The position numbers were made by a program, and so were the translations under genes. A model generated the notes under the pieces. It saw nothing but the letters and a program-made list of their open reading frames with translations. It was not told where the DNA came from and did not search any database. From the IMG/VR virus record IMGVR_UViG_3300031758_000059: a stretch of DNA of 20,000 nt; one strand, given 5' to 3'. Shown here in pieces: positions 1 to 20,000 of the stretch. The stretch comes from an uncultured virus (IMG/VR IMGVR_UViG_3300031758_000059) (lineage: Duplodnaviria > Heunggongvirae > Uroviricota > Caudoviricetes > Crassvirales). Position 1 is the first letter of the stretch. Every line of letters begins with the position of its first letter.

Positions 1-1159
1 AAGCTGTTGAGTCTGTAAGCGAAGTAGTGTCAATTAGCTCAGATACAAGATTAGCGTCATACTCAAGTCTTACGGGATTGCCATCCTCGTCAACCATATC
101 ATACCCTTCCGTATAATTTCCATACATCAAGCGGTTACCCATAATGGTCTGCGCTCTTGCAAGTAGTGGTACGTTATCGTATAATCTGAGTAGCTCAGAT
201 TCGGGAAGGATAGTAAATATCTTGCTATTGCTAAATGTATAAGTATAGTCTGTATTATCTGCAAGTCCAAGATTTGCTTTGTCAAGTTTCTCAATCACCT
301 TGACAATACTTGCTCCCGCTTCTTTAAAAAGCAGGTCGATACCAACAACAAGAGGCCCGCCCGTATTGTAGGTGACAATAGCAGCATTGTGCAAATTGAC
401 CATACCCTCGTTGAGATAACTATTTACGCTAAACTCAAATGGGTTAGGCTGAAACGCAGGAGCTGACCACTGAGACGTTGCGCTATACTCGCCATCCTCG
501 TATCTATAACGATAGGCAAAGCAAATAAAGCGAGTCTCTAAAAAGTTATCCTGAGCACCTGTAGTGATAGGTTGGACACCCGGGGCTTCAACGGGTGGTT
601 TCTTGATGACAAGAATAGATTCAGAGGTGAATTGGTCTACATCGGCAACAGGGTCAGGATAATTTCTTTTACGATTAAGAACCCTTGGAGGATTATAATT
701 GTCAGTAAAGAAGATTAGGTTATCAATAATATCAATGCCTGTAATCAAGTATTGCGGATTAAAGTTTAACGTGGTATTCACGCCACCTCCATTGTCAATA
801 CTTACAATATGATACGTTAATATCTGAGAGTATACATTAAATGATACTATCATGTCAAGCTTACCCGTATTACCTACAGGGAAGTTTGAGTCATGGATAA
901 ACCAATAAAGAGTTTCGTTGGCACTGTCGTCAATAGCACCAATACATTTTGCGCTTGAGCTGAGCGGAGTGCCATCAATATATTTTAAAGTAGTTAGCTG
1001 AACATTACCTTTTGTGTTTTCAATAACACCAATCTCAGCATTTTCAGTAGACCCCATGCGTACATTGAGCGCATCAATATACTCTCCGTTTGGAACAAGT
1101 CGCTCGTCCACGACTTTATTCATCCTACCTGCTGTGAAATTTCTTGTAATGTTCGCCAT
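1..1159 (-). CDS. Tail stabilization / muzzle (nozzle)-like protein, N-terminal part; continues beyond left edge
   Basis: Absent from the ORF track because it is truncated. ATG at 1159, 1 nt after the TAA of the upstream gene. It reads MANITRNFTAGRMNKVVDERLVPNGEYIDALNVRMGSTENAEIGVIENTKGN..., resembling the 'MNKD.DERL.PNGEY.DA.N' N-terminus of crAss-like stabilization proteins. Located after two ring-like genes. Confidence 0.75.
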   Translation of the reverse strand, partial: MANITRNFTAGRMNKVVDERLVPNGEYIDALNVRMGSTENAEIGVIENTKGNVQLTTLKYIDGTPLSSSAKCIGAIDDSANETLYWFIHDSNFPVGNTGKLDMIVSFNVYSQILTYHIVSIDNGGGVNTTLNFNPQYLITGIDIIDNLIFFTDNYNPPRVLNRKRNYPDPVADVDQFTSESILVIKKPPVEAPGVQPITTGAQDNFLETRFICFAYRYRYEDGEYSATSQWSAPAFQPNPFEFSVNSYLNEGMVNLHNAAIVTYNTGGPLVVGIDLLFKEAGASIVKVIEKLDKANLGLADNTDYTYTFSNSKIFTILPESELLRLYDNVPLLARAQTIMGNRLMYGNYTEGYDMVDEDGNPVRLEYDANLVSELIDTTSLTDSTA

Positions 1160-1160
1160 A

Positions 1161-2084
1161 TTATTTTAACCACTTGTCCATACCACGCAGGTTCATAAGA
1201 AGTCTGCCCGGATGAATGTTACTCATTCTGATTTTTGCGTTACGAAGAAGTGCAGCTTTCTCTTTACGAGCGCGAGCTACAATATATTCTTGAACGCCAA
1301 GCTTAGAGTTTAGTACCTCATACGTGATATACGCATAGATGTACTTCTCAAATAATTTATTAACCGTTACGTTAGCATCGTTGCCATTCTCCATTCCATC
1401 AGAGATGTATTCGAGAATAACAGATTGACCATACATATCAGAGTTAAAGTTTATTACTCCCATTCGTTGGTCAATAGCAAAGGTTGGGTTGAAGTTAGCT
1501 GTCTCTGTGTTTAAACCATAGCGCTCACCAAGACTATAATCAAAATACCACATGCCATCAACACACCATCCTTCCTGTCCGTTATATCTACTTTGTGGGT
1601 TAAGATATATACTCTTCTTAGTTCCTGCTAAACGCTGCTCATCAATCTCAGAGAACTCAGGAGAAAGCGCATTACCTTCTTGGTCAAATAATATCTTCCC
1701 CGTTTGGTCTTGAAGATAAGCAAGTGAAGAAAGGATTTGAATGTTCTCGGTAAGTGGTCTTAAGTATCCGTCTTTGTAAAGATTTACGCGAACCCAATTG
1801 ACATAATCAGATGGGAGAATATATCTAAGACCATCATCTACTGTAAGCTCTAATACTTTTATGCTTTTAAAAGCATCGTAGTTCAACTCTTGAATAGCAC
1901 GCTTTGCGTGAAATAATATCTTAAATCTCTCTTCATTATTTACAAGAGAGTGATTGCCCGAATACATCAACAAAAAGTTGTTGACAATATCATATAGGCT
2001 TACGTATTGATATGACCCCCAATTCCTATCAATGGGTTGGTTACCGCTATTTTCGTAATACTGATATTGACTAATGTATGCCAT
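1161..2084 (-). CDS. Putative tail ring / head-tail connector structural protein (307 aa)
   Basis: Full ORF. 'FHAKRAIQELNYD...LPSDYVNWVRV...ILEYISDG' resembles tail tubular/ring proteins. Synteny between capsid and stabilization genes. Confidence 0.6.
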   Translation of the reverse strand: MAYISQYQYYENSGNQPIDRNWGSYQYVSLYDIVNNFLLMYSGNHSLVNNEERFKILFHAKRAIQELNYDAFKSIKVLELTVDDGLRYILPSDYVNWVRVNLYKDGYLRPLTENIQILSSLAYLQDQTGKILFDQEGNALSPEFSEIDEQRLAGTKKSIYLNPQSRYNGQEGWCVDGMWYFDYSLGERYGLNTETANFNPTFAIDQRMGVINFNSDMYGQSVILEYISDGMENGNDANVTVNKLFEKYIYAYITYEVLNSKLGVQEYIVARARKEKAALLRNAKIRMSNIHPGRLLMNLRGMDKWLK

Positions 2085-2086
2085 AA

Positions 2087-2827
2087 TTATTGCGATTGTT
2101 TTTGTTCTTCAGCAGCACCAAACTGAACTGCTGTAATCTCACGTATTGACATTCCTGCATACTGAAGTATTTTAGTAATGAGCTTATACTCATCTTCAAA
2201 CGGAACTTCAAAGTCTTGATAGTCAGGTTGAGATTGGTCAAACACAGGCTCACCATTAGTAAGCGTGATGTAAGTCCACTTAGGGTCTTTGGGATATCTA
2301 AAATAATTTGCATCAACTTCGTTGGCAAGATTGATTGTCGCAGGATACACTGTAAGAATACTACCCTCTTGTGTATACGCAGGATACTGCTCTGTTGGTG
2401 CAGTAAGATTAGAAGTAGTAAGCATCGTAATTTTTGTATGCGTTACCTTCTCGGCTTCTCCTTTAAATACACGTGTAAGCCCCGATGCGTCATAACACAT
2501 AATCTTATTAATCATAAAATAGTCGAAGCCTGTTGTAGTTACAGACGGAAGATAAAATCTATTTGTCGCGGGTGTTACTTGTGTAAGCGTTGATGTAAGA
2601 GCAAATAATTCCATGGCTTCTTCAGTAGCTTTTCTGATGTCAGCATACGAAGTGCCCGACATACGAGCATTTTCCATGTTGAGTAACTTATTGTACTCTG
2701 AAAAATATTCTTCAAACACCTCCAACTGAGCCTCTTTTGCGTAGAGGTTAAAATCGGAAGGTGAGATGTATCCGTAATTGTTCTTATTCAGAACAGCTAA
2801 AACGGTATTTCTTACGGAATTTATCAT
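2087..2827 (-). CDS. Putative tail ring / adaptor (tail tubular) structural protein (246 aa)
   Basis: Full ORF 'MINSVRNTVLAVLNKNNYGYISPSDFNLYAKEAQLEVF...YFRYPKDPKW...LITKILQYAG'. The layout is typical of podoviral adaptor/ring proteins. First gene after a terminator plus promoter. Confidence 0.6.
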   Translation of the reverse strand: MINSVRNTVLAVLNKNNYGYISPSDFNLYAKEAQLEVFEEYFSEYNKLLNMENARMSGTSYADIRKATEEAMELFALTSTLTQVTPATNRFYLPSVTTTGFDYFMINKIMCYDASGLTRVFKGEAEKVTHTKITMLTTSNLTAPTEQYPAYTQEGSILTVYPATINLANEVDANYFRYPKDPKWTYITLTNGEPVFDQSQPDYQDFEVPFEDEYKLITKILQYAGMSIREITAVQFGAAEEQKQSQ

Positions 2828-2840
2828 TATAATCTTTTTA

Positions 2841-2848
2841 CAAATATA
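2841..2848 (-). promoter_or_regulatory. Bacteroidota-type -7 promoter element (TATATTTG)
   Basis: Minus strand reads TTTTTTTGTTTATATTTGTAAAAAG, matching the TAnnTTTG consensus and ending 13 nt upstream of the ATG at 2827. Confidence 0.65.
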
Positions 2849-2851
2849 AAC

Positions 2852-2878
2852 AAAAAAAGAGGGTATAGAAATACCCTC
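2852..2878 (-). terminator. Rho-independent terminator
   Basis: Perfect 8-bp stem GAGGGTAT-TTCT-ATACCCTC (2859-2878) followed on the minus strand by T7, about 30 nt after the stop of 2909..3655. Confidence 0.8.
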
Positions 2879-2908
2879 CGTAACCGATTGCTTGCTTATA
2901 TATTAAAC

Positions 2909-3655
2909 CTACAGTAAACTATTTTCAAGCATTTTCAGGGCATCAATACCTTCATCTGTCTTCAGAAACTCAGCCACCGTGAAATAAGGGTCCTGACCAT
3001 AAGGTACAGTTATCATCTTTTTCTTGTTGGAAGCGGTATTAAACCATACCTCTTTCTGCCCGTTTCTGAAGGTCAGCAATTTATTTTCAAAGAACACATG
3101 CACATTTGATTGGTGCTTCAGCTGTGGGTCGTTGAGTATATTAAGGAACCCGTGAGGGTCTTTTTTGGCATATACCAACACATCACGCTTCAGCTCTGCG
3201 GTAGTAAACCTACTTGGGTCTTTTCCAAATAGTACCCTTGAAACCAATTCAAGCTGCTCTACACTAAGCTGACGAGCTTCTACAAGCGCATCAACCTCTG
3301 CGGCAAGCTTCTCAACCTCTTTGGCCGCATCTTTTTCGTGGTCTACCTCGATAAATGTTCTACCATTTAAGGGGTGATAGTGTAAAAACTCCTGTAGAAC
3401 AGGGTTGTTTTTGGGTACTCGAAGGAACCCATTCTCAAATATTACAGGCTCTACAATTGCATTTCCGTCTTGCTCATCCTCAAAAGCAGTCTTCTGATTG
3501 ATGGCATATCTGAGAGGTCTATTAACGTTATTTGCCTCGTCAAACCACAGAAGAGGGAATCTTCTCGTGTTTCTCGAAGGCAAAGTGTAAGATAAGGGAG
3601 CTGAATCCCCTTTTAGCTTATATATCCTGTCTGCAGGAACTAATTTCTGTTTCAT
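2909..3655 (-). CDS. Hypothetical protein following the major capsid gene (248 aa)
   Basis: Full ORF flanked by two terminators. Phage-like composition; no recognisable catalytic motif. Confidence 0.75.
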   Translation of the reverse strand: MKQKLVPADRIYKLKGDSAPLSYTLPSRNTRRFPLLWFDEANNVNRPLRYAINQKTAFEDEQDGNAIVEPVIFENGFLRVPKNNPVLQEFLHYHPLNGRTFIEVDHEKDAAKEVEKLAAEVDALVEARQLSVEQLELVSRVLFGKDPSRFTTAELKRDVLVYAKKDPHGFLNILNDPQLKHQSNVHVFFENKLLTFRNGQKEVWFNTASNKKKMITVPYGQDPYFTVAEFLKTDEGIDALKMLENSLL

Positions 3656-3678
3656 TAGATTTTAATTTAATTAGATTT

Positions 3679-3716
3679 AAAAAGAAGGGGGAGTGTCTTT
3701 AAAGACACCCCACCCT
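3679..3716 (-). terminator. Rho-independent terminator downstream of the major capsid gene
   Basis: Minus strand AGGGTGGGGTGTCT-TTAA-AGACACTCCCCCT then TCTTTTT. GC-rich stem with one bulge and one G-U pair, 12 nt after the MCP stop. Confidence 0.8.
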
Positions 3717-3728
3717 ATATTACTTGTA

Positions 3729-5150
3729 TTATGAACCGTAACGGAACAATACGAAGTTGTTAGCACCCAAGGTACAAACGCAACGCTCAGAAAGGAAGTT
3801 AACCTCCATTGCGTCAAGGTCGCTTGTTTGAGCACCACCCGCAGAACCTGTAATCCAAGTTTTGTATCTGCGGTCTTCAGTCTCAGACGCTCTGTAACGA
3901 ACGTGTAAGAATGGACGCTTAGCGTTCTTGCCAAGGATTTGGTCGTACACGGTAGTTGAACCGGCAGGAACCAAAAGACCTGTAACAGTACCTGCAGCTT
4001 GTGCACCTGTAGGTAATCCACCACGCATAGTTGGGTCGTTCAAGTATTTCCAATCAGACTTGTAGAAGTCGTAACCTCTGCGGAAGCCTGTGAAACCAAG
4101 ATTGAGCGCCATGTCCTTATCGTTGTCGAAAAGACCATAAGACGTACCACCTGTACCGTAGCTGTTCTGAGCAGCAAGCATATCATCAATGTCAAAGCTG
4201 AAGGCACGGTTAACGAAGATTACGTTCTCTTCGATAGAACCTTGCTTGTCAAGACGAGAGATGATGCTGTCGAAATCTACAAGAGTAGTTGGGTTACCAC
4301 CACCCCATACGTTTCCGCGCTCATTTACTACGTAGAAGATACCTTCAGAACCTTTGTTACCAACCTGCGTATTTGCAGTTTGAGTAGCAACACCTGAACC
4401 TGACTCAGCAGGAACAGCCTCAATCATTGCAGTCTCAAGGTAGTCCTCAAAACGCAAGCGAGTCTCGTGCTCACTCTTCAAATACCAAAGGTATCCGGTA
4501 GCTCCGTTCTCAGTTGTTACCTCTACCCATCCAATCTGTGCCATGTCAGAACCGCTTACAGCGTATTTGTCCTTGATGATAATTGGAGAGTTAGAGAAGA
4601 TTTCGTCTTCTGCTTCCAAAGAACCAATCATTCCATTAGTTCCTTTCTTGAACTCAGAACCGTAAATCCATACAGATAATGTATCAGTTGATGCGAAAGT
4701 CTGACCTGCAGCCTCATAGTAAGCTACATCAAAAGTACCTGATGTTGTGTTAACAGCAGTAACGATACCTTTGTTAGAAAGACCTGTGGCATTGTCAGAG
4801 ATGTAAACAGTCTGACCAACACGGATAGCGATACCACTTACGTTAGCATCACTTACAGTGATAGTTGCAGTGTCATCACCTGCGTCTCCGTTAGAAGCAC
4901 AATCAACATACTTAGTATGCAGACGGCCTTGCTCAGCCCACTTAATCATGTCTGAGTTAGATGGCATCTCTGCTCCTACCATACGTAGGAAAGATGCTAC
5001 AGTACGATTACCATAACGCTCAAACTCCTTCTCATAAGTATCAGGAAGATACTGATTAAGGAAGTTGAAGTTGGTAATATAGTTAGTCGATAATGGTACC
5101 TGCTCCGCACTTGGCTGAAGCTGATAACCGGGATTTGGTAAAACAGCCAT
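3729..5150 (-). CDS. Major capsid protein (473 aa)
   Basis: Follows portal and scaffold and is followed by a strong terminator. Motifs 'YLPDTYEKEFERYGNRT..FLRMVGAEMP..SD.I.W.EQGRLH' and C-terminal 'M.VNFLSERC.CT.GANNF' resemble capsids of crAss-related Bacteroidota phages. Confidence 0.85.
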   Translation of the reverse strand: MAVLPNPGYQLQPSAEQVPLSTNYITNFNFLNQYLPDTYEKEFERYGNRTVASFLRMVGAEMPSNSDMIKWAEQGRLHTKYVDCASNGDAGDDTATITVSDANVSGIAIRVGQTVYISDNATGLSNKGIVTAVNTTSGTFDVAYYEAAGQTFASTDTLSVWIYGSEFKKGTNGMIGSLEAEDEIFSNSPIIIKDKYAVSGSDMAQIGWVEVTTENGATGYLWYLKSEHETRLRFEDYLETAMIEAVPAESGSGVATQTANTQVGNKGSEGIFYVVNERGNVWGGGNPTTLVDFDSIISRLDKQGSIEENVIFVNRAFSFDIDDMLAAQNSYGTGGTSYGLFDNDKDMALNLGFTGFRRGYDFYKSDWKYLNDPTMRGGLPTGAQAAGTVTGLLVPAGSTTVYDQILGKNAKRPFLHVRYRASETEDRRYKTWITGSAGGAQTSDLDAMEVNFLSERCVCTLGANNFVLFRYGS

Positions 5151-5160
5151 TTTTTTAGTT

Positions 5161-6255
5161 TTAATTTATTTTTTTAATGCTTCGGATTTTTAGACTCCTT
5201 CCGGAATCCGGTGTCACCGATTTCACCTGCATTCCACCCTTGTTTACAACTTCAGGGGCTCTACGCTCAGACATGTTAATATTTTTTGTCTTACGTAAAA
5301 CATCTTCAGTCGCATCTGCTAAACCCTGTTCATAGAAATGCTTAGCAAACTTTTCGGGATTCATTGCAATTGACAAAGCCCTATGGTATCCTGCAGCGTC
5401 TTTGATAAGACCACTCTCATCCAAAAACTTGTTAATAAAGTTCATCGGAGTTGCTTGAGCCTTCTTCAGTTCTGCTGCTGCACCGGGAGAAAAGACAACC
5501 TTCTTGTCGTTAATGTCGAACTCAAAACCTTTGAAGTCTTTACTAAAGACCTCTTCGGACTTTTGGTCGAACCACTTACGCTTACGCTCGTTTTCCTCCT
5601 GCAGGGTTTTTGCCTGTTGTGTATACTGACGGTACGCTTCAAACTCTTCTTTCTCCTGTTGAGATAAGCTTAGACCACTTGACTCAAGTGGAAACTTGTA
5701 TTTCTCTTTTTGGGAGTTGAAGTAATTTTTAGCCTCCGCAATAGCCTTCTTTCTTGCTATCTTAGTTTTCTTGACCTTAGATTCATCATCGACTTCTTCA
5801 TCGTAAGAATACTCTTCCATGAGGATATCAATGTCTTCTTTGTCAAGACCTTTCTGCGTATCAGCAAGATAATCTCTAAGAAGTTGGTCGGGGTCCATAG
5901 CGTCAAAGTCTTTCTTTAACTTGACAAAGTCATCAAAACCACGCCCTGTTTCCTTCTTAAAATTTAAATAAGCAGCCACGTCTTCAGGGAGCTGTTCACT
6001 CTCTTTGCGTTCTGCCATCAACTCATCAAATGAATTGATTTGCTTATTGTAGCGCTTTCCAATATATGAAAGAACTTTTTCCTCTGATAGCTCCTCTTCC
6101 TGAGCAGGTTCCGGCTCAAGAGAAGATGTGTCAATTTTTACTTCAGGTTCAGCATTTCCACTTACTTCCTCCTCATGCTTCTTTAGAAGCTCTTCTTCTA
6201 CCTGCTGAACACTTTTTTCTTCTACGCCATCAAGAGCACGTACTTTAATTTCCAT
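5161..6255 (-). CDS. Putative capsid scaffolding protein (364 aa)
   Basis: Acidic, E/K-rich, predicted helical/coiled-coil, with a basic C-terminal tail. Located between portal and MCP. Confidence 0.65.
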   Translation of the reverse strand: MEIKVRALDGVEEKSVQQVEEELLKKHEEEVSGNAEPEVKIDTSSLEPEPAQEEELSEEKVLSYIGKRYNKQINSFDELMAERKESEQLPEDVAAYLNFKKETGRGFDDFVKLKKDFDAMDPDQLLRDYLADTQKGLDKEDIDILMEEYSYDEEVDDESKVKKTKIARKKAIAEAKNYFNSQKEKYKFPLESSGLSLSQQEKEEFEAYRQYTQQAKTLQEENERKRKWFDQKSEEVFSKDFKGFEFDINDKKVVFSPGAAAELKKAQATPMNFINKFLDESGLIKDAAGYHRALSIAMNPEKFAKHFYEQGLADATEDVLRKTKNINMSERRAPEVVNKGGMQVKSVTPDSGRSLKIRSIKKIN

Positions 6256-6303: not shown

Positions 6304-8739
6304 TTAACGAGGTTCAAACTCGGCTAAGTCAAAACCATCAAGGGTATCCTCATTTGACTCGAAGTTCATTGGAGGTAGGTTGTTCTTTCTTTGGTTTATG
6401 AGCTTAGACTGCTGCGTATTTTGGATAGCAATACGCTTTTCTTTAGCCGTTTCCTTCATATCCTCGCGGGTAGTGATGGCGGTTTCCTTAATACCTGCTA
6501 TTTGCATTTGGTACTTAAACTCCTCGCTCATCAGTATCCGTTTCATCTCAGCCTCAGCCTTCATCTTCTCAATATCAAAAGCCACCTCGGCTTGCTTGAT
6601 TTGCATCTTTGCTTGCGTCTCAAGCTGTATCTTTTGCATAGCCGTTTGCGCAGCAAGCTCCTGAGACTTCAGTTGCTGCTGAGCAATCATTGCCTGCTTT
6701 TGCATCTCCATGCGCTCTTCTCTATCCTGCTTCTTAACTCTTTTAAGCTTGAGAAGCTGATTAGCAAGCTTTATGTTTTTAATCTCTCTAATGTCAATAG
6801 CATCCTCAAGGTTAATGTCACCCTTAGATAATGCCATTTGGATATTAGCTTCAAGCTGAGCTTTCTGCTCTTCGTCCGGAGAAACTTCAATAAAGATGCC
6901 AAAGTCATAGATATATAGGTCGCTTATCTCATTTAAGATAGATACATTGTATTTGCCAATCTTATTGGCGAAGTCGTCTTTAAAGTCAGCGTACTGCAGA
7001 ATATCTGCAACACGGTAGGTAAGGGCCTCGGCAAGAGACCTGTATACGTACAAACCGCCCTCAAGAATATGGCGTGTCGCGGTGTTAGAGTTTAGGGCCG
7101 CAAGCTTTTGAACCCCTACCAATGCGTTCGGGTCAGGCATAGAGCCATCTCTTGCCTCATTCAGTCCTGTCACAGACCGAATCATGTCAAGGTAGTGGTT
7201 GTAGTTAGCTATTAGCATCTGCGTCTTGCTTGCTCCTGAATTAGAAGTAAGCTGTTGAATAGGTACACGAGCATTGTTAAACTCACCTTCCTGCGTGTAG
7301 CTACGCCCAATCACACTACCTGTTTGGAAGTAAAGACGCAGTGCGTCTTCAGGATTATAAGCCTGCCCTGTACCAAGGTCAACCTCATTTAGACCATCAG
7401 CATCGATGAACACACCATCAGGGACAGTGCGTGCAATAACTTGCTGTAGTTTTAAATGGGTTAATTGAATAAGGTCTGCAAATGGTATCATCCTACGCAC
7501 AAGCGATTCAATAACACCTTTGTACATTCTTGGTGCAACTGCAACATAATTCGGCAGCGCATGCTGAGAAGTTGATTTTGGTCTCACCATGTTCTCACTC
7601 ATTTTCCACTTGAGTAAGAAGTTTGTTCCCATTACCATCACACCCTCATACCAAACATCAATTGTCTTTTCAATCTTTTCAAACTTTCCTTCCTCCATCA
7701 TTTCTACAGGAGGATTGAATTGGTCATCTTTTTCAATTATACGTGTACCACCTGTTTCAAGAATCTTCTTCTTGTAAACCATTTTCTTTGTGGTCTTGTA
7801 ATTGAAATATAATAAAGTTGCTGTATCACGATAGAACAAACTATTCTCGTAGAATCTTGCTACGTTGTAATAGTCATACCAACTCTGTGAGTACATTGAA
7901 ATCTCTTGCAATTGCTCACGAGTAAGTGTTGGGTCTATCTTTAATAACTCCGTTATTGGAAGAGTTTTAATTTCTCCCCAATAGAAGCAATCATTAAAGT
8001 AAGGGTCTTCCGTATAGCTGTATACCACATTTGCAGGGTCAACATAAGAGACCTGCACACCTGCTCCGGGTAAAAATTCATGTTTGGCCACACCAATACC
8101 CAAAACGGTAAGGTCATAGTCAATACGCTTACGAGTATCTTGATAATGATTCTCATCAAATATTGTATTGATAGCTTCTTCTTCTGCTATCTCAATTGCG
8201 GGCTTGTAGTTTAATTGCATATACAGCGACAATTCCTCGTCTGTTTCGGGAAGTTCTTCAGGGTCCATTGTAAATGGATTTATCCCTGTAGACTCTTGCA
8301 CCTGCATAAGAACGTCTTTAGCTACCATCTGCCCCTCAATCATATCTTGATACTTGCTGCGCTTCGCTTGTGACATTGCATCTTGTGCATAAGCTTTCAC
8401 TTTGAATAAGCGGTCACTCATACCATTTACAACAATGTCAACAAATTTTGGAAGAATAGGAACAGGAGTCCAATCTAAATTTAGATATGACAAATCTCCG
8501 TCTATTGCAAGTTCATTTTTATACTTCTGAACAGACTGCTCACCACGAGCGTATAAGCGCAGTCTATGAAAATCACGCCATTGATTATAGTATCTACATT
8601 GGTTTCCATCTTTGCGGAACCATTCATATTGAATTGCTTGGCCAACTTGTAGACCAAACGCATCAGAAGCTTTCTCTGCATCAGTTACAAACTGACTTGG
8701 AAAACCGGTTGCGGATATGTTGACTATGACATCTTTCAT
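6304..8739 (-). CDS. Portal protein (811 aa)
   Basis: Directly downstream of TerL with an ATGA overlap. 'PVPILPKFVDIVVNG' and 'IRSVTGLNEARDG' are portal-like segments. Long Q/E/K/M-rich C-terminal coiled coil resembles the barrel of P22/crAss-type portals. Confidence 0.85.
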   Translation of the reverse strand: MKDVIVNISATGFPSQFVTDAEKASDAFGLQVGQAIQYEWFRKDGNQCRYYNQWRDFHRLRLYARGEQSVQKYKNELAIDGDLSYLNLDWTPVPILPKFVDIVVNGMSDRLFKVKAYAQDAMSQAKRSKYQDMIEGQMVAKDVLMQVQESTGINPFTMDPEELPETDEELSLYMQLNYKPAIEIAEEEAINTIFDENHYQDTRKRIDYDLTVLGIGVAKHEFLPGAGVQVSYVDPANVVYSYTEDPYFNDCFYWGEIKTLPITELLKIDPTLTREQLQEISMYSQSWYDYYNVARFYENSLFYRDTATLLYFNYKTTKKMVYKKKILETGGTRIIEKDDQFNPPVEMMEEGKFEKIEKTIDVWYEGVMVMGTNFLLKWKMSENMVRPKSTSQHALPNYVAVAPRMYKGVIESLVRRMIPFADLIQLTHLKLQQVIARTVPDGVFIDADGLNEVDLGTGQAYNPEDALRLYFQTGSVIGRSYTQEGEFNNARVPIQQLTSNSGASKTQMLIANYNHYLDMIRSVTGLNEARDGSMPDPNALVGVQKLAALNSNTATRHILEGGLYVYRSLAEALTYRVADILQYADFKDDFANKIGKYNVSILNEISDLYIYDFGIFIEVSPDEEQKAQLEANIQMALSKGDINLEDAIDIREIKNIKLANQLLKLKRVKKQDREERMEMQKQAMIAQQQLKSQELAAQTAMQKIQLETQAKMQIKQAEVAFDIEKMKAEAEMKRILMSEEFKYQMQIAGIKETAITTREDMKETAKEKRIAIQNTQQSKLINQRKNNLPPMNFESNEDTLDGFDLAEFEPR

Positions 8740-10973
8740 CTAATAAGTTGACTTGTTGTTCCACTATTAGTGTACCTTGCGAAATTAACACTAATTTTCG
8801 ACTCTTTTTTCTCAGGTAAATATACGTGTTTTTGGTTTGCCATTATCGCAAGACCTGAGCTAATAGCTGCGTCAAAGCGTGTACGGTCGCTAATATCAAA
8901 CTTTGCCCAATCCTCAAGTGTGCGTGTAAATGGCATCGTTCCAATCTCATCAGCAGGTCTGTATGTTCCTGCTAAATCAAAGCCAATGTACTTTTCAATA
9001 TACGACTCAATAGCTGTTGCGTGCGCCTGCTTCACTTCTTCAGAAGAGTTAGGAATACCACCAAGCTCCCTCTCAGTCTTACTCAATTTATTGAGCAGTC
9101 TGTCGGGTCTGTTCATACAGAACTGACGGTAGCCTCTATTTTTAAAATGGTAAAGTAGTCTCGGCTTGTTATTCTCCGCAAGCACCGGCATCCCGTAAAA
9201 CACGCAAGCCATAAGCACCTCTTCAAAAAATATCTCAGCCGTCTGAGGACGAGCAATGTACTCAAGAAAGAACTGATTGACCGGAGCGTCATCCATGTGG
9301 TACTTGGTCATCCCGTGCAGCGACCCGTTGGAGCCACGTCCCCCTACCACTGCTGATATATCGTAGGGGTCACAGCCAAAACTCCCAAGGTGTTCATTGC
9401 CGGGGTATTTTACTCCACTGCGAGTGGAGACGCTATTTTGCATGTGAACAGGTGGGACCCAACTAATTAAGAACCTACCACGAGGGTCAGGAGTCCATAT
9501 AACCTTGGTGTCTTTCTCTCCGTCTTTCCAATGAAATGTTCCACGTGAAACCATGTGCGCCTGAATCTGCGAGTCGTTGTAGTCAATCTGTTGGTATATC
9601 TTGGTCAGGTTAAATAGCGCCTGCTTACTCTCGTCACGAAAAGCGTGGCTTTCGGTGCGAGGGAACTGACGATAAAACTCATTTAGTGCATCGGCATCAT
9701 TTTTAAGCGATTCAACCTCTGCCTCCCAATAGTCAATAGCCCCGTTGGTTATATCTTGCCCGTCTACGCCAATGATGGGACTGTCGGGTTTTCTAAATAC
9801 AGGCATGCCGTAGCGGTCAATAAACCCCTCCATGTTCCACTCCATCGGAATAAATAGGGAGTACAGCCCACTCTTGGTCTGTCCGTTGGCGTTTCTGTTA
9901 AGAATATTTGAATCCTCATACAGCTTTTTATAGTTATCACCGCCCTTGCTTAGTGCATTCGAGGTGGAGCCCATCATGCACTTGCCAATTATCTTACTAC
10001 CCACCCGAAGACAGGTCTTGGTTACACGCCAATTATTAAGAATGTTATTTGGCTTTACCCACTTAGCACTCTCGTCATGGGCAAGGAACAGGAGTTTCTC
10101 TCCATCGTAGGAGTTCTCCTCAGTATTTTTCCAATCTATTGTGGTATCAAGACCATCGACAACGCTTCCTTCGGTAGTGGTCATGTTCTTCTTGGTAATC
10201 TTTGCAGCCGGAACGCGGTAGGCAAGCTCAGTCTTTGGCTTATCCATTCCGTCCATAATCGGACGGAAAAAGAATGGCAGCCTGCTATTAATAGGCACAA
10301 CCTTATCGGTGAACATCTTTTTGGCATCAGCACCCGTCTTTGACAGGATACCAATACGAGAGTCGCGAGCAAGGGTTGCTATGTTTACGCACTCTGATGA
10401 AGACATAAAAGAAAACCCTGAGCGTCTTATTTTTAGATATATCATCCCAAAAGCTCTTGAGTCTGCGCGGCACGCCTCCCAAAAGATAAAAAAGATTCTA
10501 TTAGCTTCTCGGTAGTCAGGATAGCCAATGTCAATACTTGACCACTGCAGGTACATATAGTGTGAGCCCGTAATATAGGTCGGCTCTCCGTTATTCATAA
10601 ACCACATACCCCCTTCACGCCTGTCAAACTCCTGCTCGATATAATCAACCCACCGGTCTTTAAACTCAGTAGGCATCTCGTTCCAATGAAATATTGATTG
10701 AATTTTGCTTAGTTCCCTTGGTAGGTCTTGCCTTTCCCAATACTGCTCACTTTTGGTGGTGTGTCTTTGAAGACACTCTTTAGGTGCGAGGGGTAGGGCG
10801 ATGAGTAGCCCTGCGACATTTATGATGTCACCAATCTGACCCGTCTTAGATATGACAACCATGTCATACTGCTCGTTGTAACCATATCTCCAAGCTTTTA
10901 GTGTGTTCTTCTTAGAGACAGCGTTCTTCGGCACGTAGTCATGTACGACTCGATATAGACCTTCGTTCTGCAA
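8736..10973 (-). CDS. terL: Terminase large subunit (about 745 aa, TTG start)
   Basis: Walker A-like LKIRRSGFS, Walker B LFLAHDE, coupling motif GSTSN, and RNase H-like nuclease acidic residues (FGCDPYD, AENN, FDAAIS). Confidence 0.9.
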   Translation of the reverse strand: MQNEGLYRVVHDYVPKNAVSKKNTLKAWRYGYNEQYDMVVISKTGQIGDIINVAGLLIALPLAPKECLQRHTTKSEQYWERQDLPRELSKIQSIFHWNEMPTEFKDRWVDYIEQEFDRREGGMWFMNNGEPTYITGSHYMYLQWSSIDIGYPDYREANRIFFIFWEACRADSRAFGMIYLKIRRSGFSFMSSSECVNIATLARDSRIGILSKTGADAKKMFTDKVVPINSRLPFFFRPIMDGMDKPKTELAYRVPAAKITKKNMTTTEGSVVDGLDTTIDWKNTEENSYDGEKLLFLAHDESAKWVKPNNILNNWRVTKTCLRVGSKIIGKCMMGSTSNALSKGGDNYKKLYEDSNILNRNANGQTKSGLYSLFIPMEWNMEGFIDRYGMPVFRKPDSPIIGVDGQDITNGAIDYWEAEVESLKNDADALNEFYRQFPRTESHAFRDESKQALFNLTKIYQQIDYNDSQIQAHMVSRGTFHWKDGEKDTKVIWTPDPRGRFLISWVPPVHMQNSVSTRSGVKYPGNEHLGSFGCDPYDISAVVGGRGSNGSLHGMTKYHMDDAPVNQFFLEYIARPQTAEIFFEEVLMACVFYGMPVLAENNKPRLLYHFKNRGYRQFCMNRPDRLLNKLSKTERELGGIPNSSEEVKQAHATAIESYIEKYIGFDLAGTYRPADEIGTMPFTRTLEDWAKFDISDRTRFDAAISSGLAIMANQKHVYLPEKKESKISVNFARYTNSGTTSQLIR

Positions 10974-11226
10974 ATCCTTGTTTTGTATCTGTTCTGTTTA
11001 CTCCTTTCTCAAGCATCTCAAGCGCTTCTTTCTCTGCCTCAATCTTATTTAAAATCTCAAAGGCATCAAAGATGGCAAGCTTCTTAGTAGCTGCTGCGTT
11101 CTTAAGCCTATCTGCTGCAAGCTCATCATCAGGGTCAGGCTTGATAATATCTTCCTTCGCCACTTTGATAAGCTGCTCGACTGCTTGATAGCCTGCTTCA
11201 ATAATTTTTGCTTTGATATCTCTCAT
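10939..11226 (-). CDS. Putative terminase small subunit (95 aa; ATG 11226, alternative GTG 11229)
   Basis: Small helical charged protein immediately upstream of terL and overlapping it. Function inferred from position only. Confidence 0.5.
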   Translation of the reverse strand: MRDIKAKIIEAGYQAVEQLIKVAKEDIIKPDPDDELAADRLKNAAATKKLAIFDAFEILNKIEAEKEALEMLEKGVNRTDTKQGFAERRSISSRT

Positions 11227-11702
11227 CACTTCTCTTTTAAGAATACAACTTGAATTAGACGAGCAGAGTCGTCTGAGCCAAAGTTCTCAAATATGTTTCT
11301 GCTATGCGGTAGTTCAGAGTCAAACATCAATATACGATTAAACTTAGAATACACCACACATGATGGCTTCCCATCTTCGTCATAAATAGTAGTACCGTCT
11401 TCATCAGGGTGCCTGCGACTCAAATAAAGTATAGCAGTAATGTCACCCATCATCTCATCGGTATGAATAAAGTTTGGTTCTTCTTGATTAAGCGGTGACT
11501 TTCTAATGAAATTATACGCCACTTTGTAAACAGGTCCCGCTAATTCAAGCGCAAACCTTGCAAACTCATCATCATGAGGGCGTGGCTGAATGTTTTGAAA
11601 CGTATTGACGCCATCAAATACATCTATAAATTCACTACTAAGTATTTCGGAAACATACTCTACAGGATTATGAATGACATTATCGGTTATGATTAAGTTC
11701 AT
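11226..11702 (-). CDS. 2-oxoglutarate/Fe(II)-dependent oxygenase family protein (158 aa)
   Basis: HxD (FIHTD), 'AILYLS', 'GTTIY', 'FNRILMFDS.LPHS' (distal His) and 'RLIQVVF' (2OG-binding Arg) form the canonical double-stranded beta-helix signature. Confidence 0.85.
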   Translation of the reverse strand: MNLIITDNVIHNPVEYVSEILSSEFIDVFDGVNTFQNIQPRPHDDEFARFALELAGPVYKVAYNFIRKSPLNQEEPNFIHTDEMMGDITAILYLSRRHPDEDGTTIYDEDGKPSCVVYSKFNRILMFDSELPHSRNIFENFGSDDSARLIQVVFLKEK

Positions 11703-12253
11703 AGCTTCATCGTTATTTGATGGTCAAATATTCGGTATAGCTTTTCCCCATCCACGTCAAACTCATATTCGCTGTCAGGCTTAAAGCACACGGTGTCCCC
11801 TTCTCGTACGCCTTGGGTCAGCAGGTAAGCATTCGGGTAAACCATAGTCCCCATAAGCGGCTCATTGGTGAACGGCTTTTTGATATAAGAGTCTACGGCC
11901 GGCATTGGCTTTACGAAGCAGTAGCGGTCATAGGTATGCCATTTGCCGTCATGGCGGTAGAGGTAAAATTGGTTGGGCTCTACAAAGAAGATATCATCTC
12001 GAAAGAAGCTTCGACTGCTTTTACGTCTACCCTTAATGTCGTTATAGAACTTAAAAACGTTATGGTGCACAAGTAGCGTATCGCCTTTTTGAACGGGGCC
12101 TGTGTAGCCGCGAGGCACCTCAACCACTTCAGCATAGCGGTTAGAGAACCTGTGGTCCTCCTCCGAGGTGTTGACGATAAGCTCTATGCCACCAACTTCT
12201 TTGGTATTGTTATAGCGCTGTCCTGTAACAATAAAATCAAACGGAGATTGCAT
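11699..12253 (-). CDS. GroES-like co-chaperonin, apparently two tandem domains (184 aa)
   Basis: C-half 'CFVKP...GTMVY...GVREGDTVCF....EYEFDVDGEKLYRI...I' parallels GroES 'VKVGDxVLF...GxEVKxDGEEYLI'. The N-half has the same pattern ('GGIELIV..AEVVEVP..VQKGDTLLV'). Confidence 0.65.
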   Translation of the reverse strand: MQSPFDFIVTGQRYNNTKEVGGIELIVNTSEEDHRFSNRYAEVVEVPRGYTGPVQKGDTLLVHHNVFKFYNDIKGRRKSSRSFFRDDIFFVEPNQFYLYRHDGKWHTYDRYCFVKPMPAVDSYIKKPFTNEPLMGTMVYPNAYLLTQGVREGDTVCFKPDSEYEFDVDGEKLYRIFDHQITMKL

Positions 12254-12480
12254 TAATATTCGATATTGTATTCAGTGGACACAGGCATATTGTGATTAAA
12301 AGACTTCCATAGCATCGTTTCATTTTTTTCGTTGGTGATGAAGATTTTTACATCTCCTGTCTCCGGGTCGAACTTAATGAGGTTAATGTGATGGCTGTCT
12401 CCAAGGACCTTCTGTCCTACAATGTAGTGCATTGCACTACCCTTGTAGTCGGGTCCTATAGATATTTTCCTGATGTCCAT
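12253..12480 (-). CDS. Hypothetical protein (75 aa), first gene of the packaging operon
   Basis: Full ORF with a TAATG overlap to the next gene, preceded by a promoter motif and the AATCT-repeat leader. Confidence 0.7.
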   Translation of the reverse strand: MDIRKISIGPDYKGSAMHYIVGQKVLGDSHHINLIKFDPETGDVKIFITNEKNETMLWKSFNHNMPVSTEYNIEY

Positions 12481-12505
12481 ATTAGATTAGATTAAATTTC
12501 ATTTA

Positions 12506-12513
12506 CAAAGTTA
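12506..12513 (-). promoter_or_regulatory. Bacteroidota-type -7 promoter element (TAACTTTG)
   Basis: Minus strand TAACTTTGTAAAT, overlapping the TAA stop of 12511..12747 and heading a chain of overlapping genes from 12480 to 6304. Confidence 0.6.
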
Positions 12514-12747
12514 ATGCACAACTCCGAGATAATCCGTACCCGTGATGCGGTAGACGTTTCCGGCCACTAAACCTGCAGCGAGTGCGGCAGCGTTATTTGC
12601 ATACACAGGGACGCTTGGGATAGGGAGGGCGAGTATATCGCCAACTGTGAAGTTCTTGGTCTTGTTAGAATCTTCAGCATCTGTGCCGATAAGTTTATCG
12701 GCATAGGATACGTTATTGTCAGTTGCGTATGAATTAATAGTTCCCAT
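12511..12747 (-). CDS. Small fibre/virion-associated protein (78 aa)
   Basis: Full ORF. N-terminal 'INSY..D..V...DKLIGTD.....TKNFTV' and C-terminal 'VYANNAAALAAGLVAGNVYR' resemble the termini of phage fibre/decoration proteins. Confidence 0.6.
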   Translation of the reverse strand: MGTINSYATDNNVSYADKLIGTDAEDSNKTKNFTVGDILALPIPSVPVYANNAAALAAGLVAGNVYRITGTDYLGVVH

Positions 12748-12753
12748 GTGTGA

Positions 12754-16100: not shown

Positions 16101-19100
16101 AGTTAGGAATTGCTAATACATTGTTCCCATATCCATAAACTCTTTCATGTCTGCTTGTTCCAACAAGATGCAAAGTTCTGCTTGGAGCAGTAGTTCCAAT
16201 ACCTATATATCCTGTGCTTCCTTGTAAATAAAATCTCTGAGTTCCACTAACTCTTAAAGATATGTTTTGTGCAGTACTTGGAACATTTATGTAAGAATCT
16301 CCTGCAAGGCTTTGAGCTCCAAGATAAAAAAGTGTTTGATTAATACCGGGGTCAACATTTTTAACTGTAAAGTTTCCATAAGCCCCACCTGCAGGATTCA
16401 TCTGAAACTCATAAGTGGTATTAACCGATGATGAGTTTGAAGGCTTGAATGTGCCAATTAATGTAGGGCCACCACCAACAGCTCCTGATATATTCATCAC
16501 ACCTATGTTCGCATCTCCATTAACATGAAGATTTGCTGTAGGAGAACTTGTCCCTACTCCTACATACCCACCATCAGGATTAAGAGCTAAGTGCGCCCAT
16601 GTTGAAGCACTACCTGCATTATCTGTTACCTGTAATTTTACATAGGAATCATTTGAGTATATAGTCATTCCTCTTGTTCCACCGCCACCTCCACCTGTAG
16701 TAAATCGAGCAATGTTATTCCCTACGGCTCCACCATTCACTTCAAGTTTATATCCGGGACTACTTGTATTAATTCCCACATTACCCGAAGAAGTAATACG
16801 CATTTTTTCAGTAGCACCATAAGCAGTGGTAGTTGCAAATGCTAAGTGTCCTGTATTCCAATTCCCATCTCCTGAGTCTCCTGCAAGAATACCATATATA
16901 GCAGCATAGTTATTATTATAACTTCCGCTTGTTGTCCTTGAGCTAAAACTAATTATAGGAGAGAATGAACCAACAGAATAAACATTATTGGTCAAATCAA
17001 GACCTCCTCCTATTGAAGCATTAGAAGTATTTGAAGAGGTAACAGTAATACCTTCAGCGTTAAAAGAATTACCGGTTCCATTTATATATGGTAAACGAGC
17101 CCCTAAATAAGACCCAAGAGTTAAACGAGTTGCAGTAGAAGTTGTGCCAATACCTACATTATTATAAAAAATCACGTCACCCCAAGGCTGAATATCCATT
17201 CTTAATGATGGAGCAGTAGTGGAATTAGATGCGTTTCCTGTAAAGAATCCAATACCTTGTATTGCCCAAGAAGTTTGATTAGTTGGCCTAATTGATGCAG
17301 AGTCTTTTGTGTACGATGTATTCTTCCAAACAATACCATGAGAATAGCCATTTGGTTGTTGAAACACAAGGTCATAGTCAGAAGATATATAAAGACCTCC
17401 ACCTTCAACTTGAAGCTTGTATGTTGGAGCAGTAGTGCCAATACCCACATTACCATCCCCTGTTATACGCATTTTCTCAGTAGCATCGGTTATATTAACA
17501 GTGTTAGCTACGTGAGTATAAAAAGATAGATGGGTAGACCAATCAACGGTATAATTAGTTCTTGAACCTGCAATACCACTCCAATGCACACCTCCACCAC
17601 TACCAAACCATACTCCACTCATTGTATTTTCATTAGTCGTAGAAACTAATGTTAACCCATACATGTTTGAGTTTTTGGTAGCAGTAGTGCTAAATGCAGC
17701 ACCACTTGTTTGTATAGTTGTTCCTATGTTAATTGGCGATGTTGTCCCAATTCCAACATTACCACCGTATTGGAGAACCATCAAATGTGTTGCTCCTGCT
17801 CTAAAGTTTATACTTGTTCCTGAACTACTTGATACAAATTCACCTAATCCTGAAATAAATTGACCTCCTGCCGATAGTGAACCATTTGTATTTAATGTTA
17901 CAATCCCTGCATTTCCTTGTACATCTAACTTATAACCCGGACTACTTGTTCCAATACCTACATTTCCATTAGATGAAACTCTCATTAGTTCACTAAATGT
18001 TCCACCTGTTGCTGAAGAGAAACTATTACCTAATCCAAACAAAAGCTCTCTATTCGCTGACATGATAACATTCGGTCCTGCTACACCTGCGCTATCGTTA
18101 TTACCCATTATGAAGTAAGAAGGACACCCACCACCACTTGCAGGAGCTGCTATTGAAAGACTTCCGCTTGATGGTATACCGCAAACTCCTGTAACATGAA
18201 GATTGGCTACAGGAGCAGAAGTGTTAACCCCCACGTTAGTACCATTATCATAAATGATACTATTGGTAAGAGTATTGGCATCTTGCCATCTCGGCACATA
18301 GTTAGCTGTACCACTACCGTCAACAACACCACCTGCCGTCTCAATGATATTACCTGAAGAGTCAACGGCAAGGTTATATGCTACGGTTCCGGTATAGGAA
18401 CCGCTACCATAAGCATTGAGTAGAATCTGTCTGTTGTTTTTAATGACCGCAGCTTGCAGTCTTGCAGCATTTGTTCCTACCCAAAAGTTAATACCCTGAT
18501 TAGAATCATTATCATAGTTAAAAATGTGCAATCCTCTTGCCGTACTTGTACTTTGATTAAGTCCGGAAAAACCTTTTTTATAATCACCTGCTGAAGGGCT
18601 ATAATCTAAATATATAGAATCTGAATATTCTGCAGTAATACTACCAACAACATGCAGCTTAGTCAAAGGCACTGTTGTACCAATTCCTACATTACCTGCA
18701 ACGGTAATACGCATTCTTTCAGTATCGTTTGTATCAAACGCAAGGTATCTGCTAAGTGGTGCATATAAAGTAATCCTATTTGTGAAACCTAATAGTCCAC
18801 CTACAAATGTGCCTGCTACACTTAGTGCTAATGTTGGGTAAGCTGATGCGTTAATATCTAATGATGTAACATTTGTGCCTGAGTATGGAGTGGTTGTTCC
18901 AATACCCACATTCCCCCCATTGAAATAGGATGAGCCGCTTGAGTTTAAAAATACTCCGGTTGTGCCTGTGCTGTTTTCAACGGTAGCAGTTCCATTACCA
19001 CTCGCATCTTCATATACGTAGAAGATGTTGTTTGTATTAGCGTTTCTTTGAATCGCAAATGGAACACTATTTAGTCCTGCTGACTTTACATGCAATCTAT

Positions 19101-20000
19101 AAGAAGGTGAAGAAGTACCTATTCCGACCAATCCTGAAGCGGTAATCCGCATCTTTTCAGAAGACTGAGTTGTAATCGTAAGATATGTAGAGGAATATAA
19201 ATCAGCATAAGCTCCTCTTGTGCCGTCTTCCCAAGCTAATGTAGCCCTATTATTTGAAGAAGTGTTTTGAGCTGAGATTGCAGTTTGAACGTTAGCAACA
19301 GTACTGTTTAATTGGATATAGTTATGAGTGTTATTGTCCACTTGCAACTTAACCGCAGGGGCTGTTGTCCCAATTCCAACATTTCCTGTAGATGTAACAT
19401 ACAACCTATGACCACCACCTGACTGCCATATTGAAAATCCTATTGAATCATTTATCTGTCCAACTCTCCACTTTTCAACAGACGAAGCATATATCTTTAA
19501 TGAAGCATATCCATTTGTAGAATCAAGACTAAGCTCTGCACCACCGTTTGCTGATTTAAAAAATCCTGAAGAGTCACCGCTTGACCTGTAAACAACCAAA
19601 GCATCACCGGGACTACTCGTTCCAATTCCAACATTACCTGTAGCGGTTATACGCATCCTCTCGGTAGCACTATTATAAAACAACAACGGTATTGCATCTC
19701 CTGTATATAAGTATTGACCTACAGCGTTAATACCAAATAATGCACTACCTAACGTACTTTGTGCTAATAAATAAGCGTCATCTGTATTAAAGGTATTTCT
19801 AACTCTTATAGCAACTCCTGCTGCAGCTTGTATATCTAACTTATATGATGGACCTGCTGTTCCAATACCCACGTTAGTACCATTGTCATAAATAATACTG
19901 TTCTGAATGGTATTAGCATCCTGCCACTTAGCAATGTAATTAGCTGTACCTGTACCATCAACACCGGTAATCTCAGAAAGGCTTACCCAATCAGTACCTG
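13132..20000 (-). CDS. Giant modular tail fibre / adhesin (>2280 aa), 5' end outside window
   Basis: The frame of 13132..19872 stays open to the edge (GTDWVSLSEITGVDGTGTANYIAKWQDANTIQNSIIYDNGTNVGIG), so GTG 19872 is not the true start. G/S/T/N-rich with about 22 GNVGIGT-type units. Confidence 0.88.
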   Translation of the reverse strand, partial: GTDWVSLSEITGVDGTGTANYIAKWQDANTIQNSIIYDNGTNVGIGTAGPSYKLDIQAAAGVAIRVRNTFNTDDAYLLAQSTLGSALFGINAVGQYLYTGDAIPLLFYNSATERMRITATGNVGIGTSSPGDALVVYRSSGDSSGFFKSANGGAELSLDSTNGYASLKIYASSVEKWRVGQINDSIGFSIWQSGGGHRLYVTSTGNVGIGTTAPAVKLQVDNNTHNYIQLNSTVANVQTAISAQNTSSNNRATLAWEDGTRGAYADLYSSTYLTITTQSSEKMRITASGLVGIGTSSPSYRLHVKSAGLNSVPFAIQRNANTNNIFYVYEDASGNGTATVENSTGTTGVFLNSSGSSYFNGGNVGIGTTTPYSGTNVTSLDINASAYPTLALSVAGTFVGGLLGFTNRITLYAPLSRYLAFDTNDTERMRITVAGNVGIGTTVPLTKLHVVGSITAEYSDSIYLDYSPSAGDYKKGFSGLNQSTSTARGLHIFNYDNDSNQGINFWVGTNAARLQAAVIKNNRQILLNAYGSGSYTGTVAYNLAVDSSGNIIETAGGVVDGSGTANYVPRWQDANTLTNSIIYDNGTNVGVNTSAPVANLHVTGVCGIPSSGSLSIAAPASGGGCPSYFIMGNNDSAGVAGPNVIMSANRELLFGLGNSFSSATGGTFSELMRVSSNGNVGIGTSSPGYKLDVQGNAGIVTLNTNGSLSAGGQFISGLGEFVSSSSGTSINFRAGATHLMVLQYGGNVGIGTTSPINIGTTIQTSGAAFSTTATKNSNMYGLTLVSTTNENTMSGVWFGSGGGVHWSGIAGSRTNYTVDWSTHLSFYTHVANTVNITDATEKMRITGDGNVGIGTTAPTYKLQVEGGGLYISSDYDLVFQQPNGYSHGIVWKNTSYTKDSASIRPTNQTSWAIQGIGFFTGNASNSTTAPSLRMDIQPWGDVIFYNNVGIGTTSTATRLTLGSYLGARLPYINGTGNSFNAEGITVTSSNTSNASIGGGLDLTNNVYSVGSFSPIISFSSRTTSGSYNNNYAAIYGILAGDSGDGNWNTGHLAFATTTAYGATEKMRITSSGNVGINTSSPGYKLEVNGGAVGNNIARFTTGGGGGGTRGMTIYSNDSYVKLQVTDNAGSASTWAHLALNPDGGYVGVGTSSPTANLHVNGDANIGVMNISGAVGGGPTLIGTFKPSNSSSVNTTYEFQMNPAGGAYGNFTVKNVDPGINQTLFYLGAQSLAGDSYINVPSTAQNISLRVSGTQRFYLQGSTGYIGIGTTAPSRTLHLVGTSRHERVYGYGNNVLAIPNSITYGTVWVHLGTCGAFTTDKIYYRVNTNTSEEEGEITVSNTCSLPFVQWQRNTYNRMVVQVKARMTGGCGNCEIWVQVLYGSDFLGANTTLQWQAYNGTDSGFSVVNAIGTPGTGTNEKNLSGVEGYFYANSGSIFAADNVGIGTVSPAYKLDVNGTARFLSLGIVQASNNSDVPNITFTNNGGAYTWGIVGALLQGDGDGALYFKTKIGGSVTEKMRITSGGLVGIGTSSPSYTLDVSGAGNMLNINKTSASAGYIANLAVSGSQKQYSYWNGTSLEFGVIGTSYFSSRVGIGTTSPDSILVSNYGTLTTFNSSDIRTTTALLLTANDPGTTSSSHAVSLAFRPITNRGAAATITVYNESTNKEGGAVFTFNSGGGAYPSSITERMRITSAGNVGVATTTPTSKLSVNSAISTSSTNVISIMQNTTGANKDAAVFGVSIQNGGESTNAADLYIGTASGGAISERMRITSGGNVAIGTSAPASKLGINFNGRTVTGLELATVDTDLRPPYYAIRANIPTVRLGSNSVTGVYLSFTETTALANGRATGVLTEVDGSTSININGGIVAIYGRVGTTTAHTTGHAYGVFGLTSNSNTNGFGVVAGIGSDVNWSGKAGLLAYSSNTTDNVALFYNGNGEVARVTGAGLVGIGTTNPTSPLTFGKASYGAPSSEDFFRIKFEDFGGIHNDVGIGQFASGSLGFNVCAGSYIAFNEGTNGERMRIAAGGNVGIGTSGPTAKLTIAISNSSHANEGILLTSSGGYGEGAIYHDYGQGNGLTAFKIRNLYGGSEINLSQDSYSSFGSPSSIIFSTSPISGSNTPVERMRITSTGNVGIGNTNPGDFSGDANTLVLGSTGTTLAGMTIANNTTGTGGIYFADGTDGTNKEYRGYFSYYHGDDSLTIGAGGAGRVSITATATDVFSGNFLVSNGSIKTGTPTGGTAVPWKLGSRITNSCGLPTTYADFAASFMVSNKVIEVEVDGVLVYIPIVNPGWC
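13590..19900 (-). repeat. About 22 dispersed 'E(R/K)MRITxxGNVGIGTxxPxxxLxV' linker repeats separating unrelated modules
   Basis: Counted in the translation. Exact DNA matches include gtaatacgcattctttca (13631-13648 and 18704-18721), tgttgtcccaattccaacatt (17740-17760 and 19363-19383) and gaagaagtacctat (15407-15420 and 19109-19122). Confidence 0.9.

Follow-up and report, generated by a model that had tools for sequence, protein, structure and literature searches.

Loss of restriction sites from bacteriophage genomes is a textbook phenomenon, and the sections of the survey by Rusinov et al. (2018; PMC6286503) drawn on here report that roughly one viral genome in ten has lost sites almost completely. 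According to these sections, phage avoidance concerns almost only the sites of orthodox Type II systems, being rare for Type III sites and not seen for Type I and Type IIG sites. The asymmetric tetramer CCAG (CTGG on the complementary strand) is on record as a methylation target in the cited parts of several reports: in Helicobacter pylori A45, where methylation is abolished by hp0944 knock-out, and in T. phaeum (PMC10689673), in Geopsychrobacter (M.Gel16401IV, Type II, producing 5-methylcytosine, m5C) and Exiguobacterium GIC31 (supplement of PMC4752239), and in Sporosarcina P32a (PMC5930826). Here we report on the absence of CCAG/CTGG and of other short words from a stretch of 20,000 bp (40.9% G+C) of an uncultured virus of the Crassvirales (IMG/VR record IMGVR_UViG_3300031758_000059). 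This whole stretch, referred to as the window, corresponds to the structural module of a lytic crAss-related podophage of about 60 kb, with relatives linked to Bacteroidota; its 13 open reading frames (ORFs), all on the minus strand, make up 95.9% of its length. What is new with regard to known avoidance is the prominence of an asymmetric target, CCAG, which could be set apart from CTAG.

Five words had no copy on either strand between positions 1 and 20000: CCAG, CTGG, CTAG, GATC and the gapped word CGNCG. A preliminary description of the window had reported the absence of the first three against rough expectations of 50, 50 and 70 copies, close to the zero-order values computed here (52 for CCAG, 48 for CTGG and 72 for CTAG; 70, 45 and 43, respectively, under a second-order Markov model). 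The absence of GATC (72 expected at zero order, 53 under the Markov model) and that of CGNCG, recovered by a gapped-word scan (19 expected from the CG dinucleotide count), had both been overlooked. Sibling words were plentiful (CCAA 136, CCAC 104, CCAT 149, CTAA 68, CTAC 85 and CTAT 69 copies), and the most depleted tetramer still present, CGCG, reached 0.47 of the count predicted by the Markov model. Synonymous codons were also shuffled 300 times within each of the 13 ORFs, keeping proteins and codon usage, a conservative null model, since the purge has already left its mark on codon usage. For the coding strand, this yielded 45.8 copies for CCAG (minimum 31), 82.5 for CTGG (64), 44.6 for CTAG (26), 50.9 for GATC (37) and 25.5 for CGNCG (12), and none of the 300 came near the observed zero for any of the five words. 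Control words fitted the shuffles (CATG 46 observed for 48.7, CCGG 35 for 31.5 and AGCT 93 for 88.4). The absence was thus selective and not a matter of composition, as had been proposed, and avoidance of CCWGG alone cannot account for that of CCAG.

The nearest record, G001 (45.9 kb, 99.96% identical to the window over 17,934 bp), served as a stand-in for the remainder of the genome. It held none of 229 expected CCAG/CTGG sites, none of 166 GATC, two of 166 CTAG and one of 46 CGNCG; since the same purge extends across these 45.9 kb, it is genome-wide. ATGCAT, CATATG, GAATTC and GGATGT/ACATCC were likewise at zero in this record, with 4 to 20 copies expected for each, and CATATG was missing from the window itself (5.9 in the codon shuffles). 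These hexamers, each of little weight singly, suggest further restriction targets.

The way in which sites are avoided could be read from a table of codon pairs on the true coding strand. Pairs that create a motif were at zero in every context, whereas their synonymous alternatives were used 22 to 144 times. Following two-fold degenerate residues, NNC-TGG was never used for 22 occurrences of NNT-TGG, with a baseline NNC share of 0.40. Proline codons preceding a G were never CCA (0 versus 84 other codons), although CCA represents 28% of proline codons and was used 66 times before other letters. Similarly, NCT-GGN was at 0 versus 144 for its alternatives (baseline NCT share 0.40), and GAT-CNN at 0 versus 45 for GAC-CNN (GAT share 0.52). 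That codons are bent around the motif had been recognized in the preliminary description; the two Pro-Gly examples that it placed near 16754 and 19607 do exist as words, but were read on the non-coding strand, all long ORFs lying on the other one. In a relative that retains the sites (G007, 85% protein identity over 3,472 aligned residues), the genes shared with the window contain 77 copies of CCAG/CTGG. Both encoded residues are unchanged in the window at 59 of them, for about 56 expected by chance at 85% identity, so that no additional amino-acid replacements were needed for the purge. Sites are lost mostly through synonymous codon choice, which is set by the neighbouring codon.

More than 608 IMG/VR contigs carry a terminase related to that of the window. 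The window and its 80 best relatives (74–88% identity) were taken as a first sample of 81 records, a word being considered purged when observed at 0.1 of its expectation or less, with an expectation of at least 8. CCAG/CTGG was the word most often purged (59/81), followed by GATC (50/81), CGCG (38/64), CATG (27/81), CTAG (22/81), GGCC (20/64), GCGC (19/64) and CGNCG (11/30). The state of CCAG was bimodal, with 59 purged records, only two intermediates (0.1–0.4 of expectation) and 20 records at 0.4 or above, and it changed at least nine times on the terminase tree. Both states were borne out by whole records. Purged records included G004 (0 of 311 expected CCAG/CTGG sites), G005 (0/263), G006 (0/211), G002 (4/320) and G003 (2/217). 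Normal counts were found in G007 (263 observed versus 210 expected), G011 (137 versus 89), G008 (180 versus 198), G013:C10 (326 versus 204) and the complete genome G014:C198 (412 versus 227), G007 and G011 being close relatives of the window at 85% and 83% protein identity.

A second sample, drawn around an unpurged relative, added 45 new contigs after removal of 20 loci that re-sampled contigs already counted. Here CCAG was purged in 12 of 45 records, GATC in 18 and CTAG in 12, and two other asymmetric words, CCCG (7/39) and CCGC (3/39), also appeared among the purged ones, in sister clades. AciI is an enzyme for CCGC. Taken together, CCAG was purged in 71 of the 126 records, normal in 53 and unclear in two. 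Raw co-occurrence counts for purges of CCAG and a second word (both, CCAG only, second word only, neither) were 56, 10, 11 and 30 for GATC, 28, 31, 1 and 49 for CATG, and 0, 64, 8 and 19 for CCCG, which was never purged together with CCAG. The purge of CCCG/CGGG was found in a sister group (L226, L227, L228, L232, L251, L253 and others), often along with CCGG, CGCG and GATC, which suggests another host lineage whose asymmetric 4-bp target is not the same. An on/off mosaic of purged words within a family is what would be expected from host enzyme sets that vary.

In one reading offered by the preliminary description, CCAG and CTAG had both been removed by a single system of defence or modification, its asymmetric target being degenerate (CYAG/CTRG). 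The window, where both are absent, and G001, where both are purged, are compatible with such a target. However, over the 126 related contigs the two purges were independent (21 with both, 37 with CCAG only, 11 with CTAG only and 33 with neither; Fisher p = 0.28), and G014:C198 has none of 191 expected CTAG sites for about twice the expected CCAG. A further distinction came from host-phylum chromosomes. One stretch was taken from each of 60 genomes of the phylum of a Flavobacterium bin, of which 52 of at least 10 kb were kept and eight shorter ones dropped. In these 52 Bacteroidota stretches, the median observed/expected ratio of CCAG was 1.11 (range 0.43–2.07), with none at 0.1 or below. CTAG had a median of 0.07 of its zero-order expectation, i.e. 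a depletion of about 14-fold (0.34 against the Markov model), and 31 stretches were at 0.1 or below. CCAG/CTGG is thus a target of its own and not one half of a CYAG motif, so that a single degenerate system is a very improbable cause; scarcity of CTAG and scarcity of CCAG within one genome can have different causes.

The same chromosomes bear on another explanation, in which the missing words reflect mutational or repair bias (very-short-patch repair, for instance) or a general bias in word use taken over from the host, rather than selection exerted by a defence. Equal depletion in host chromosomes had been named beforehand as the sign of such a bias; it was seen for CTAG, the only word for which this explanation finds support, and neither for CCAG nor for GATC (median 1.28, none of the 52 stretches at 0.1 or below). 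Since host-phylum chromosomes are depleted in neither CCAG nor GATC, loss of these two words is phage-specific; nor were the stretches depleted in CGNCG. Moreover, the absence is total, its state in the family is bimodal, and CCAG is normal or in excess in relatives at 83–85% protein identity. Even for CTAG, 40 of 81 family members were at 0.4 of expectation or above, so that its loss is no fixed property of these phages. A bias of this kind is in our view highly unlikely to be the cause.

It is also conceivable that the cause lies within the phage, a CCAG-specific nuclease of its own, degrading host DNA for example, forcing its genome to be free of sites. In favour of this, a few gene families occur in purged genomes only, among them that of a conserved protein of 316 aa, which has 859 homologues (at 60–80% identity) and no assigned function. 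Neither Pfam nor PHROGs gave a nuclease or methyltransferase signature for any of these purge-specific families, the contrast in gene content between purged and unpurged genomes having yielded only unknowns and fibres, and this contrast is itself confounded by relatedness and incomplete contigs. The 316-aa protein has no Pfam or PHROG match and matched no solved structure by sequence or profile, its only lead being a weak amidoligase resemblance in the Atlas. A phage nuclease would in addition leave unexplained the changing mosaic in which CCAG is purged along with GATC, CATG, GGCC and other classic restriction sites, and we regard it as improbable. As to its surroundings, the 316-aa protein belongs to an early-gene cluster kept in purged genomes (G002, L084:3906-8578), together with a fusion of GATase and gamma-glutamyl-cyclotransferase and a RadC-like JAB protein; this cluster may form a module for small molecules or peptide ligation. 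The proteins peculiar to unpurged records were fibres, a GIY-YIG homing endonuclease, holin-like proteins and unknowns. Tail fibres were too variable for their similarity to be related to the CCAG state, with two to three matches per segment in either class.

The best explanation of these data is restriction-site avoidance against several host systems, one of them specific for CCAG and of orthodox Type II, to which we would assign a probability of about 0.7. Host defence acting on short sites, the cause favoured in the preliminary description, thus remained the preferred one. The phage, in which no DNA methyltransferase of its own was detected, would evade host restriction through the lack of target sites in its genome. 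Five or more distinct targets have been purged, namely CCAG/CTGG, GATC, CTAG, CGNCG and probably a few hexamers, and the purge proceeds mainly by synonymous codons matched to the neighbouring codon. A host endonuclease would cut at CCAG, and its most likely type is orthodox Type II, because the loss is complete on both strands, all-or-none in close relatives and travels with classic Type II palindromes. This enzyme would be of subtype IIA/IIS, with a separate endonuclease and methyltransferases, in the hosts of this sub-clade. With respect to modification by the phages themselves, DNA methyltransferases of family PF00145 were found in 0 of 50 records and those of PF01555 and PF02086 in 0 of 34 each, six of the records being at least 90% complete and many being fragments, and other methyltransferase families not having been searched. 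A methyltransferase as the reason for CCAG tolerance in some relatives was accordingly rejected, none being found in purged or in unpurged records.

The defence reading CCAG may also be of another kind, for example Type III, Type IIG or unrelated to restriction-modification. CCAG shares its shortness and asymmetry with Type III targets; the sole CCAG row with an unknown methylase in the portion of a prokaryote methylome survey used here (PMC4752239) is labelled IIG; and no cognate Type II endonuclease was found in the literature searched. Against this, a purge of one strand would suffice for Type III systems, whose cutting depends on sites in inverse orientation, yet a one-strand-only purge of CCAG was found in 0 of 125 records. 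The three near-purged whole genomes (G002, G003 and MW202828, an uncultured spring phage with four CCAG sites observed versus 221 expected) also keep their residual sites in both orientations. The survey statements on Type I, IIG and III sites given above point the same way, and the normal frequency of CCAG in host-phylum chromosomes calls for self-protection such as methylation. Another kind of defence is therefore unlikely, if less so than a phage nuclease.

Concerning the hosts, 86 of the 87 records found with the same terminase (30–45% identity) were from cultured phages of Flavobacterium, Cellulophaga, Tenacibaculum and Maribacter. Seventeen relatives lay inside metagenome-assembled genomes, eight of them in bins named Bacteroidota. 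The hosts are likely Bacteroidota, as previously suggested, with the remark that binning is weak evidence. A 3-Mb 'Saprospiraceae' contig carrying a terminase relative as a putative prophage was rejected, as no boundary between phage and host was seen in 120 kb and CTAG was phage-like throughout. In one Flavobacteriaceae bin (G013: C7, C9, C10 and C21), five terminase relatives were distributed over four contigs, two of them on a single 117-kb contig. This bin and the 'Saprospiraceae' contig (G012:C33) are possible binning or assembly chimeras.

Several observations weigh against avoidance of a host CCAG enzyme as stated above. CCAG was purged in only one of the 17 genome-binned relatives, and that one was in a bin named Aliivibrio; the host lineage imposing the purge is therefore not among the named hosts. 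Cultured relatives on Flavobacterium, Cellulophaga and Tenacibaculum show no avoidance of CCAG (elemoA, 153 observed versus 134 expected; phi46:3, 155 versus 151; phi38:1, 136 versus 213; Gundel_1, 141 versus 121). No CCAG restriction-modification gene pair was found, and full-text literature searches, with REBASE outside their scope, returned only methyltransferases and no CCAG-cutting endonuclease. The view that the system 'may not be characterised' consequently stands for the endonuclease and fails for the modification, CCAG methylation being recorded in at least five organisms. The main texts of two lake and sea metaepigenome papers (PMC6329791 and PMC8919816) and of an m5C survey (PMC11954522) contain no CCAG or CGNCG motif, supplements not being covered, whereas the Sporosarcina table (PMC5930826), in the part used here, also lists CGSCG-like and CGWCG-like motifs resembling CGNCG. 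The association of the CCAG purge with those of GATC, CATG and GGCC is raw and ignores relatedness, a paired test having only four to five independent pairs, too few for significance. Finally, CTAG is depleted in the host phylum itself, and part of its absence may have a cause common to the host in place of a restriction specific to the phage.

A wider proposal can be made, for which we see even odds: that this family, which has more than 600 members, is most commonly under selection by an undescribed, orientation-independent CCAG endonuclease, widespread in one environmental lineage of Bacteroidota, together with a second undescribed activity on CGNCG. If this were true, both enzymes could be sought with the purged phage genomes as a map. 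An asymmetric tetramer with only methyltransferases on record gives the strongest signal, and the most widespread one, in a large family of environmental phages, and it predicts a new cutter with a 4-base non-palindromic site, perhaps also one for CGNCG; enzymes of this sort are few and make useful tools. The mosaic of purged words in near-identical phages may moreover serve as a read-out of host restriction repertoires, and could link uncultured phages to metagenomic hosts typed by their methylomes.

The features of the window are listed in Table 1. A search of the window against Rfam gave no match. From its place in the gene order only, the virion structural protein may be the major capsid protein. 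The fibre gene lacks the motifs just as the remainder of the window does. It contains about 16 degenerate internal copies of a unit of 40–70 nt, irregularly spaced by 204–885 nt, which correspond to a peptide module repeated along the fibre. The divergence between the window and G001 starts inside this gene, positions 17935–20000 sharing only a 178-bp patch at 90% identity, and resembles a recent fibre exchange; the exchanged stretch has zero copies of all five purged words. The phage has its own GroEL and GroES-like chaperonins (window 11699–12253; G002, L084:9582-11827), which also occur in the relatives from Flavobacterium and Cellulophaga. In G002, a complete relative of 64.8 kb with terminal repeats, there are genes for a BT4734-like primase, for Sak and RecE-like recombination proteins, for GroEL and GroES, for a protein of 2562 aa without Pfam match and for the crAss muzzle protein (C-terminal domain); no methyltransferase is encoded in it.

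Table 1. Features of the 20,000-bp window and the evidence for their assignment
Feature	Position	Strand	Evidence
crAss-type muzzle protein, N-terminal part; gene runs past the window edge	2..1159	-	Pfam crAss_MUZ PF25731, E 6.1e-10; phrog_14478
Virion structural protein	3729..5150	-	phrog_13704, E 3.8e-102
Portal protein	6304..8739	-	phrog_6547, E 1.9e-145
Terminase large subunit (family marker)	8736..10973	-	phrog_6681, E 9.7e-183
158-aa protein, weak match to 2OG-Fe(II) oxygenase	11226..11702	-	PF13640, E 9.5e-5, under the curated cut-off
Largest non-coding gap, 500 bp, likewise without the motifs	12254..12753		ORF list, whole-window counts
Tail fibre gene, 2246 aa	13132..19872	-	PHROG tail-fibre families phrog_9942 and phrog_18345

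Three described systems, each considered from the parts of the sources cited, come closest to the situation in this family. The restriction-site avoidance of virulent double-stranded DNA phages (PMC6286503) is similar in that short sites are lost completely or nearly so; in the survey it is strongest in non-temperate phages and concerns mostly orthodox Type II palindromes such as GATC. In contrast, the word most often purged here is a non-palindromic tetramer, CCAG/CTGG (59/81 versus 50/81 for GATC), the gapped word CGNCG is purged too, and neither of these two words has a known cognate host enzyme. The halovirus Hardycor1 (PMC7911831) also lacks several tetramers (AGCT, CTAG and TGCA at zero) and has CCAG under-represented, with odds of 0.11; unlike the phages of this family, it is an archaeal virus of 67.8% G+C, its CCAG is reduced and not absent, and its description includes no family-wide analysis. 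The CCAG methyltransferases on record act on the same asymmetric 4-bp word in several phyla and are labelled Type II where a type is given. They differ in being modification activities, none of them from Bacteroidota, with no partner endonuclease described and no link to the hosts of this phage.

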